Notes: generated by a model not told the origin, from the letters alone. DNA of 64,000 nucleotides from Dehalococcoidia bacterium (GCA_965205495.1 CBDBHA010000002.1:2723260-2787259), one strand, 5' to 3'. Shown: positions 56,680 to 58,289, counted from the first letter of the stretch. Numbers and translations: made by a program.

Positions 56680-57126
56680 CTAGCCCCAGTCCTCGCTTAC
56701 TTCCAACACAACAACGCCGCTTTCATCCGCTAGTTGTTGGTCCTGCGGATCAATGGAGTAACCGGCCACCACCGCCACCGACTCCTCCCCGAACATGGGG
56801 GCCAAGATATGCGCGGTCTCCAACGCCCGGGAAATGTCCTCGGAGCGGATCTTGATCGACACCTCCACCGCAACCCAAACGGGACTCGACGTTCCCCGCC
56901 GGCGGGCCGTCAGAATGAAGTCAGTGAATATTATCCGTCGCTCTTGTTCTCTACTGATCAACTGGCTGTCGACGCTATCTTCAACCGTGTACCTAAACTC
57001 TGTACGCATTTCCTGGACCGGACTAAACATTATTTCCGTCCGCCGGACGTCCAGCTTCTCACTGATTAACGGCACAATCCTGCCGTTCAGCCGCAACTCC
57101 AGGGCCCATTCCTTCAAGGAACTCAC
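56680..57126 (-). CDS. hypothetical protein sharing the PD-(D/E)XK-like C-terminal domain of 48354..49307
   Basis: 148 aa. FTDFILTARRRG...VWVAVEVSIKIRSEDISRALETAHILAPMFGEESVAVVAGYSIDPQDQ aligns with AVDLIFNGRRQN...VYVAAEASITIGDRDITRASERAGILAAATGSLAIPAVIGARIDEQ. Confidence 0.6.
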   Translation of the reverse strand: MSSLKEWALELRLNGRIVPLISEKLDVRRTEIMFSPVQEMRTEFRYTVEDSVDSQLISREQERRIIFTDFILTARRRGTSSPVWVAVEVSIKIRSEDISRALETAHILAPMFGEESVAVVAGYSIDPQDQQLADESGVVVLEVSEDWG

Positions 57127-57217
57127 GTCAACCTTTACCCCCTACATCGCCTTCAACCCCCTGCGCCCCCGGTTATTAACCACCTCATCAAAGGGCAAAC
57201 TACCCGCCCGGTGGAAC

Positions 57218-58048
57218 CTATACCTCCAGGGCCGTGTCTTCCCGGTTGGCCCACTCTCCCATGGAAGCGTCATAATTCTTGGCCCGATCATAACCCAGCA
57301 TCGTCAGCAGGAACGTTCCGTGCGCCGCACGGATGCCCCCCTGTCAATAAGCGAAAACCGCTTTGTCCGCCGTAATCCCCCGCTCCTCCAGCAAGGCCCG
57401 GACCTCCCCCGCGGGCTTGAAACGGTGATTGTCCCTCTCCATAACATTGAACCACTCCAAATGAATTGCCCCCGGAATGTGCCCCAGCCGTTGGTTCCCC
57501 CGGCTGTTGCTCCCGTCGTACTCACCGTCGCTGCGGACGTCCCAAACCACGGTGTCCGACAACGAGCAGGCCTCCTTGAGCTCATCGGTTTTTACAATAA
57601 TGGAGTCATCGGGCTGGGGAGTGAAAGTGGCCCCGCTGCGCGCCGCCACCCGGTCGAAGCTGATGGGCCGCCCCTCCTGCACCCAGCTTCGCCATCCCCC
57701 GTTCATCAACTTGACGTTGCTGTGGCCGTAGTAGTTCAACGCCCACCAAAAGCGCGCCGCGTACAGGCTCTGGTTGTTGTCGTAGGCGATGACCAGCGAG
57801 TCGTCGCCAATGCCCAACCGCTGGCACATGGCGGCAAACCCGTCCGGGGGCAGGATGTGGACCCGCCCGGTATCCGGGTCTTTTTGATAGTTATCGGGAA
57901 TCAACACCGCTCCGGCAATGTGCCCCCGCAGGTATCCCGCCTCCACGTCCGTGTCCACCAAAACCACCCCTGGGTCTTCAAGGTGGGCCTCCACCCATTC
58001 GGGTTCCACCAAAAACTCCGGGTGCGCGTACCCTTCTCCAGTGGTCAT
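57218..58048 (-). CDS. two-domain rhodanese (thiosulfate/3-mercaptopyruvate sulfurtransferase) with in-frame TGA at the catalytic Cys position
   Basis: The ATG at 58048 follows AGGAGG. The ORF stops at TGA 57344-57346, in the context KAVFAY[TGA]QGGIRAAHGTF. The frame stays open for 41 further codons (...LGYDRAKNYDASMGEWAN...) to the TAG at 57218-57220. Confidence 0.7.
57317..57333 (-). other. SECIS-like hairpin 11 nt downstream of the in-frame UGA
   Basis: The mRNA is UCCGUGC-GGC-GCACGGA (7-bp stem, loop GGC). The apical loop lies about 18 nt from the UGA. Confidence 0.4.
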
Positions 58049-58289
58049 AGCCCCTCCTGTCCCCATGCGTCCAAATTTTGGCCGCCCCATTGTAGGTTGG
58101 CCCCAACAAAAGGGTCAACCAACTCCCACCATCCCGCGTCATCTTACCCCCGTCGCCCCTCTTCCATCACCCGCCAACTGTCACTCGTCACCCATCCCCA
58201 GGAGCCCCCTCCACCACCCTGACCCCTCTCTAACACTGAGCTCCCCCTCTGTCACCCCGACCCTTCTTCTGCCACCCGAGCCTCCCCTC

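Follow-up and report, generated by a model that had tools for sequence, protein, structure and literature searches.

A predicted selenocysteine-containing two-domain rhodanese of a SAR202 (Chloroflexota) bacterium, with an in-frame UGA at the catalytic position

A rhodanese gene whose catalytic codon reads TGA may end at that codon, may be a gene broken by mutation, or may encode a selenoprotein. This question was raised by a locus in a 64,000-nt stretch of DNA (hereafter the window) from a Dehalococcoidia bacterium, the host being a marine or sponge-associated member of SAR202 (Chloroflexota). It was approached through the reading frame, the relatives of the gene, the RNA downstream of the UGA, and the decoding apparatus of the genome.

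Reading frame and catalytic column

On the minus strand, the frame opened by ATG 58048 read ...ITADKAVFAY-TGA(57346–57344)-QGGIRAAHGTFLLTMLGYDRAKNYDASMGEWANREDTALEV-TAG(57220–57218). The original prediction had given this TGA, its context and 41 open codons to the TAG, and all of them were recovered. With genetic code table 11 the listed ORF ended at 57344, whereas translation with TGA as U gave a full coding sequence of 276 codons plus TAG (57218..58048, minus strand), in which the single in-frame TGA corresponded to residue 235 in the context FAY-U-QGGIRAAHG. The 41 post-UGA codons with the true stop TAG occupied 57218..57343 (minus strand), as supported by dN/dS and homology; neither frameshifts nor further in-frame stops were observed in the rhodanese frame. 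A Shine-Dalgarno-like GGAGG was seen by inspection at 58053..58057 (minus strand), 4 nt upstream of ATG 58048, and a promoter-like TTGACC-18 nt-TACAAT, a consensus match at 10 of 12 positions, lay at 58089..58118 (minus strand), some 40 nt in front of the ATG. The start at 58048 was favoured over the upstream ATG 58090, because the promoter-like site overlaps the latter and because the orthologs, 273 to 293 aa long, had the same ends as the 276-codon frame.

The predicted protein contained two Pfam PF00581 rhodanese stretches (9.5e-33), the best of them at residues 16–124. This stretch represented an N-terminal, non-catalytic rhodanese domain (57677..58003, minus strand), delimited by Pfam and by alignment with 1UAR, 3HWI and 1E0C, and had Asp (Y-D-N-N) at the position of the catalytic Cys. 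The C-terminal catalytic domain, residues ~150–270 (57239..57601, minus strand), was delimited by PDB alignments and had the TGA in its middle. The protein thus shows the layout of the two-domain rhodaneses (COG2897, cd01448 + cd01449), two rhodanese folds in tandem of which the first is inactive. Solved two-domain rhodaneses were aligned over residues 6–269, with E values of 2e-50 for 1UAR and 5e-38 for 1E0C, in addition to 3HWI and 3AAX, and the segment past the UGA was homologous to the end of the solved domains. In these alignments the TGA column fell on the loop Cys of 1UAR, 3HWI and 3AAX and on Cys230 of Azotobacter RhdA (1E0C), which is the catalytic Cys of that enzyme; the TGA had been placed at the active-site Cys from the outset, and the alignments bear this out. 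The in-frame UGA (57344..57346, minus strand), located by ortholog and PDB alignment, was thus the first codon of the active-site loop U-Q-G-G-I-R: the six-residue loop x-Q-G-G-I-R was kept in the C-terminal domain, with a UGA-encoded residue (Sec) instead of Cys at its first position. Sec at this position is a nucleophile chemically equivalent to Cys. Since the matches to solved rhodaneses reached E = 1e-50, the fold and the catalytic column can be regarded as fixed.

The NCBIfam model PRK11493 (sseA) aligned with residues 12–274 at 123 bits, below its cut-off of 250, and therefore the gene was not considered an SseA equivalog. No NCBIfam model was found to cover the Sec-rhodanese family, which accounts for the ending of the best 120 database relatives, all of them annotated as 'sulfurtransferases', at 233–234 aa. 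A Cys-type paralogue with the loop C-R-I-G-E-R, sharing 39% identity, was present in the same genome.

The neighbours in the window were genes for a divergent short-chain dehydrogenase and a PPi-type phosphofructokinase, and a 148-aa ORF (56680-57126, minus strand) situated 91 nt downstream of the rhodanese gene on the same strand, which had no Pfam match and was not conserved beside the rhodanese gene in relatives. ORFs from the flanks (±3 kb) of 80 related loci and from the window were clustered, many clusters being spurious antisense ORFs of G+C-rich DNA. No neighbour gene was common to the window and the 80 loci, and hence no conserved operon partner was assigned. An acyl/acetyl-CoA-synthetase-like gene was located upstream in 35 of the related loci and was absent at the window locus.

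The UGA column and its hairpin in relatives

Sixty-one genomes of the same order were searched with stops read through, and each frame was re-derived. TGA was found at the catalytic column in 54/54 gene copies, distributed over 48 of the 61 genomes and sharing 45% to 88% identity, with the ortholog motif Y/H-U-Q-[GA]-G-[ILV]-R-[AS]-[AS]-[HN]; two distant orthologs (L073 and L074) carried TGT (Cys) at this column. A scan of GTDB species genomes yielded 80 further loci, all from Dehalococcoidia, Chloroflexota or SAR202 MAGs, and all of the 99 copies that they carry had TGA. For matches outside the order, an even sample of 401 Chloroflexota genomes was searched, giving 11 further single-TGA matches in other orders and classes; TGA at the catalytic column was confirmed in all seven orthologs fetched (L157–L163, 51% to 62% identity). 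Cys forms were found in this sample at 38% to 49% identity. The Cys-form sequences L073, L074 and L164–L167 possessed C-Q-G-G-I-R-A-A-H. In a tree of Sec and Cys forms, the Cys forms sat among the Sec forms with weak support, and the well-supported branches force one change only. An alignment of orthologs had been suggested for deciding between Cys and TGA at this column; it gave TGA, occasionally Cys, with conserved sequence downstream.

Several features of this family were observed in passing. L157, from a genome of another family of the same class (G105, 62% identity), nested in the window's own family beside L040 with 98% SH-aLRT support, suggesting gene transfer or a misplaced genome bin. 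Two Sec-rhodanese genes were present in 19 of the 80 related loci (among L078–L100) and also in G012, G014, G017, G018, G019 and G030; the paired copies were mostly in tandem, with the Y-U-Q-A-G-L-R-A-A-H type upstream of the Y-U-Q-G-G-I-R-A-A-H type, both with TGA and hairpin, and only the latter type was seen in this genome and its genus. The codon preceding the UGA (57347–57349) was TAT in 45 of the 50 cases encoding Tyr, while Tyr elsewhere in the rhodanese gene was mostly TAC and the Cys forms had TAC before the Cys codon; the base following the UGA, the first of the codon 57341–57343, was always C (CAR, Gln). TAT before and C after the UGA may represent a context effect on recoding.

Downstream of the UGA, a SECIS hairpin, UCCGUGC-GGC-GCACGGA (57317..57333, minus strand), was located by folding and comparative data within codons 239–244 (I-R-A-A-H-G). 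Its first base is the 11th nt past the UGA and its loop G is at +18, in agreement with the sequence, the 11-nt distance and the loop G at about 18 nt given in the original prediction. The 17-nt hairpin folded at -9.9 kcal/mol (z = -3.08), and a single-sequence fold of 70 nt gave z = -1.76, which is non-significant alone; the significance of the hairpin therefore rests on comparative data. In the alignment of 54 sequences, a 6-bp core (57318–57332; columns 21–26 with 30–35) and the GGC triloop (57324–57326) were kept, whereas the outermost U-A pair of the 7-bp stem first proposed was not conserved. RNAalifold returned an empty consensus structure for the 54-sequence coding alignment, and so the structure was named by hand and its pairs were then counted: 87% of cells were paired versus 16–65% for slid partners, a control partly biased in favour of the structure because the latter came from one of the aligned sequences. 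Compensatory changes were observed at two pairs, G-C to U-A in six sequences through coupled Ala-to-Ser and His-to-Asn replacements, arising at least two times as judged from the Sec/Cys tree, and C-G to G-C in two sequences. As most stem positions were invariant, covariation rests on these two pairs.

Codon usage told the same segment apart from the remainder of the gene. Among TGA forms, synonymous variation collapsed only in codons 239–243, where the dominant codons were ATC for Ile239 (41/45), CGT for Arg240 (50/54), GCG for Ala241 (47/48) and Ala242 (51/51), and CAC for His243 (42/44), versus four to six codons in use at Arg and Ala columns elsewhere in the gene. Cys forms encode the same peptide with CGG, CGC or AGA for Arg, GCC, GCT or GCA for Ala, and CAT for His; in these, the same 17-nt segment had -1.6 to -2.5 kcal/mol versus -9.9 kcal/mol, and the hairpin was not formed. 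CGT at Arg240 was found in 57/61 Sec forms versus 0/6 Cys forms (Fisher p = 2e-6, a value overstated by treating relatives as independent). These findings indicate that selection acts on the hairpin as an RNA element and that this element goes with the UGA. The doubt that TGA-containing homologues might have no conserved hairpin was removed: TGA forms keep the hairpin, with compensatory changes and with its synonymous sites frozen, and Cys forms do not have it.

A scan of 57100–57500 against Rfam at E ≤ 10 gave two chance-level matches and no SECIS family. Similar hairpins were observed in the same genome downstream of the UGA of selD (GGACCUG-GUG-CAGGUCC, -10.0 kcal/mol) and of a UGSC-family gene (UCGUGCA-GUG-UGCACGA, -8.2 kcal/mol), both with the same 7-bp stem and a G-starting triloop, 20–28 nt after their UGA. 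The UGSC-motif selenoprotein gene is located outside the window (G000:C2, ~2839000–2840200) and has its SECIS loop at +20; its SECIS has a CGUGC...GCACG core in common with that of the rhodanese, which hints at a sequence preference of the SelB of this organism. Like the SECIS of E. coli fdhF, the rhodanese element is a hairpin directly past the UGA with an 11-nt spacer and a small apical loop starting with G; it differs in having a short perfect stem of 6–7 bp and a triloop (GGC or GUG), and no equivalent of the bulged U was seen. A distance of 11 nt is likewise needed by the minimal fdhF SECIS, and in the bSECISearch model the apical loop may lie 16–37 nt from the UGA.

The canonical stem was lost in one clade (L035, L041, L044 and L046, from G017, G009, G035 and G013, respectively), whose sequences read ...IRAANS with CGA/AAC/AGT codons. 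A hairpin, GCGAACA-GUG-UGUUCGU, was predicted 8 nt further downstream in these four, which looks like a possible relocation of the SECIS. L052 was also devoid of the canonical hairpin, and its alternative hairpin is a prediction only.

Decoding of the UGA

The genome, 3.82 Mb and 99.96% complete, in which the window is G000:C2:2723260-2787259, contained all four components of Sec decoding for which a search had been proposed in the original prediction. SelA (547 bits), SelB (347 bits, including the C-terminal part) and SelD (396 bits) scored above the curated cut-offs, selD itself having a TGA, and ARAGORN identified a 97-nt tRNA-SeC with anticodon UCA. SelA was encoded in 57 of the 61 genomes of the order. 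It was lacking in G051, one of the two genomes with a Cys form, and none was found in the TGA-form genome G026, 93% complete, where the absence is probably due to incompleteness. As a separate observation, the 5' region of selD, comprising its own Sec codon (SHCAG-U-AAKLS) and SECIS, was present in two copies outside the window, forming a perfect tandem direct repeat of 222 nt (G000:C1:175999-176442, loci L011/L016; copies starting at 175999 and 176221); the region has either truly been duplicated or been doubled by the assembly.

From these sequence data it is highly probable (roughly 0.93) that the locus is a functional selenoprotein gene, with SelB/SECIS-directed Sec at the catalytic position of a two-domain sulfurtransferase of the RhdA/SseA type. 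The selenocysteine reading of the original prediction is thus upheld by the Sec machinery, the TGA/Cys column of the orthologs and a hairpin specific to TGA forms. In the proposed mechanism, SelB-GTP-Sec-tRNA(Sec) would bind the stem that begins 11 nt downstream when the ribosome reaches the UGA (57346–57344); Sec would be inserted and 41 more codons translated up to the UAG, giving a 276-residue enzyme. By homology, Sec235 at the base of the U-Q-G-G-I-R loop would take up sulfane sulfur or selenium as an Se-S(H) or Se-Se(H) intermediate and would then hand the atom to an acceptor, as the Cys-persulfide does in ordinary rhodaneses.

A different outcome at the same codon would be that the UGA serves mostly as a terminator or is decoded otherwise, through near-cognate read-through by Trp, Cys or Arg or through Cys delivered by SelB, so that a 234-residue fragment or a non-Sec enzyme would be the main product and the Sec form minor or dependent on selenium supply. 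Sec insertion in bacteria is indeed limited in efficiency and selenium-dependent, leaky termination could also be favoured by the context of the UGA, with a conserved TAT in front and a C behind, and the reading as Sec was made at the level of sequence rather than of protein. Against this, the 234-residue fragment would end ahead of the catalytic loop, miss the final 41 residues of the domain and have no active site; the hairpin under selection is of the same form as the SECIS elements of selD and UGSC in this genome, and is lost exactly where the codon is Cys; and the full Sec pathway is kept across the order. Predominant termination or non-Sec decoding is therefore considered improbable, and Sec insertion remains the preferred reading.

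Still less probable is the alternative named in the original prediction, a recent TGC/TGT-to-TGA nonsense mutation that has truncated the rhodanese at 234 residues and left a pseudogene. It would agree with table-11 gene calling, which ends at the TGA, and with the length of 233–234 aa in the public protein records of close relatives (best 120 database relatives). However, more than 150 gene copies, which span classes and include identities as low as 45%, are fixed for TGA at this one column, and the frame has no frameshift or other stop. Over about 1200 ortholog pairs, dN/dS was 0.21–0.22 after the TGA versus 0.26 before it, and S262, W266 and D260 were invariant while their codons varied synonymously; the 41 codons past the UGA are translated and under purifying selection. 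The stretch was matched in sequencing runs from at least nine studies, one labelled as a sponge metagenome, and contigs were aligned from four runs of four studies. No variant was observed at the TGA in these contigs, which answers the possibility that TGA is a minor allele in the population. Metatranscriptome contigs, which have no direction and may include DNA, were present on both sides of the TGA. Summed contig depth rose about 100-fold over 57316–57351, the 36 nt containing the UGA and the hairpin, in three of the four runs, reaching 4145 in the metatranscriptome versus 3–60; contigs from many other strains matched only this block and diverged on either side, and this provides an independent sign of its conservation at the nucleotide level. 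At the nucleotide level the block around the TGA is the most conserved part of the gene, which also argues against a decaying gene. TGA conservation, downstream dN/dS and invariance in the four runs together exclude the pseudogene for practical purposes.

Genome-wide reassignment of TGA as a sense codon (codes 4 or 25), which would require no special element and has the open frame itself as its sole point in favour, was rejected on stop-codon usage and is scarcely credible: TGA is an ordinary stop elsewhere, since it ends 333 of the 1214 long open frames in this genome and 7 of the 54 orthologs (true stops TAG 32, TAA 14, TGA 7), it also ends the neighbouring HHH-domain gene, and machinery specific to Sec is present.

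Relation to known rhodaneses and meaning for the family

Sec-containing rhodaneses were predicted previously from marine DNA. The Sargasso Sea data led in 2005 to the prediction of 15 new selenoprotein families, among them 'Rhodanese-related sulfurtransferase' COG2897, of which one member was depicted with its SECIS (PMC1088965); 'Sulfurtransferase COG2897' appeared again in Olavius symbionts in 2007 (PMC1976440), cd01449 and COG2897 forms were included in the GOS selenoproteome in 2008 (PMC2398784), and a 2026 review lists a Sec-rhodanese 'form 4, UxxG' (PMC13188914). The mention of such marine-metagenome predictions in the original prediction was correct (PMC1088965, PMC2398784). The COG2897/cd01449 Sec family is likewise of the two-domain SseA/COG2897 type, with UGA at the catalytic Cys of the C-terminal, cd01449-type domain in a UxxG motif, a coding-region SECIS directly downstream with G in the apical loop, a marine origin and widespread Cys homologues. 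By architecture, motif and marine origin, rather than by alignment to the representatives AACY01016424 and MCY3690685.1, we infer that the present gene is a COG2897 UxxG protein of 'form 4'. The papers on this family gave no host lineage, whereas here the Sec form was near-universal in one order of Dehalococcoidia (SAR202) and often in tandem in relatives. No report tying SAR202 to a Sec-rhodanese was found in the literature searched.

Among Cys enzymes, the thiosulfate sulfurtransferases RhdA of Azotobacter vinelandii (1E0C) and 1UAR of Thermus thermophilus have the same fold and length and an inactive N-terminal domain. The RhdA loop, C230-Q-T-H-H-R, has the C/U-Q....R frame in common with the Sec enzyme, and so has RhdA the C-terminal GEWGNHPDTPVE tail. 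The differences lie in Sec for Cys, in the loop (Q-G-G-I-R versus Q-T-H-H-R or R-I-G/A-E-R) and in the SECIS, for which the Cys enzymes have no need. NF041203 ('rhodanese_LYCAU, rhodanese-related (seleno)protein') and the COG0607 Sec-rhodaneses (forms 1–3) also have Sec in or next to the rhodanese loop, but these are single-domain proteins of ~126 aa with CxU or UxxS, whereas the window protein is two-domain with UxxG. The match to NF041203 was weak, 29.8 bits against a cut-off of 115 and in the N-terminal domain; membership was rejected on this score and on the UxxG motif.

The gene is very probably a real, ordinary member of a selenoprotein family predicted 20 years ago, and no concept is changed by it. 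Its value lies partly in annotation. Gene callers and databases truncate the protein at residue 234, and the catalytic loop is consequently missing from public records, as in the best 120 relatives; functional inferences on SAR202 sulfur metabolism thus rest on broken models, and hundreds of records would be put right by a selenoprotein model built for this family. The family, so far represented only by anonymous reads from metagenomes, gains a host lineage and an estimate of prevalence. Further value lies in the within-genome SECIS consensus and in the possible SECIS relocation in one clade, while the Sec and Cys forms with identical active-site peptides constitute a natural data set for separating RNA-level from protein-level constraint.

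A wider proposal can be put forward only as a speculation that is unlikely to hold as a whole. The RhdA-type sulfurtransferase would be an obligate selenoenzyme in SAR202 and its marine or sponge-associated relatives among the Chloroflexota, with Sec in ~80% of the genomes of the order, often in tandem and among the most nucleotide-conserved blocks of the community; it would act in selenium (perselenide) and sulfane trafficking that ties sulfur cycling to selenium supply, and one clade would have a relocated SECIS. If this were true, the hairpin 8 nt downstream in that clade would be a natural relocation of a SECIS inside a segment coding for the active site, and the sulfur cycling of abundant dark-ocean bacteria would be tied to the supply of selenium.
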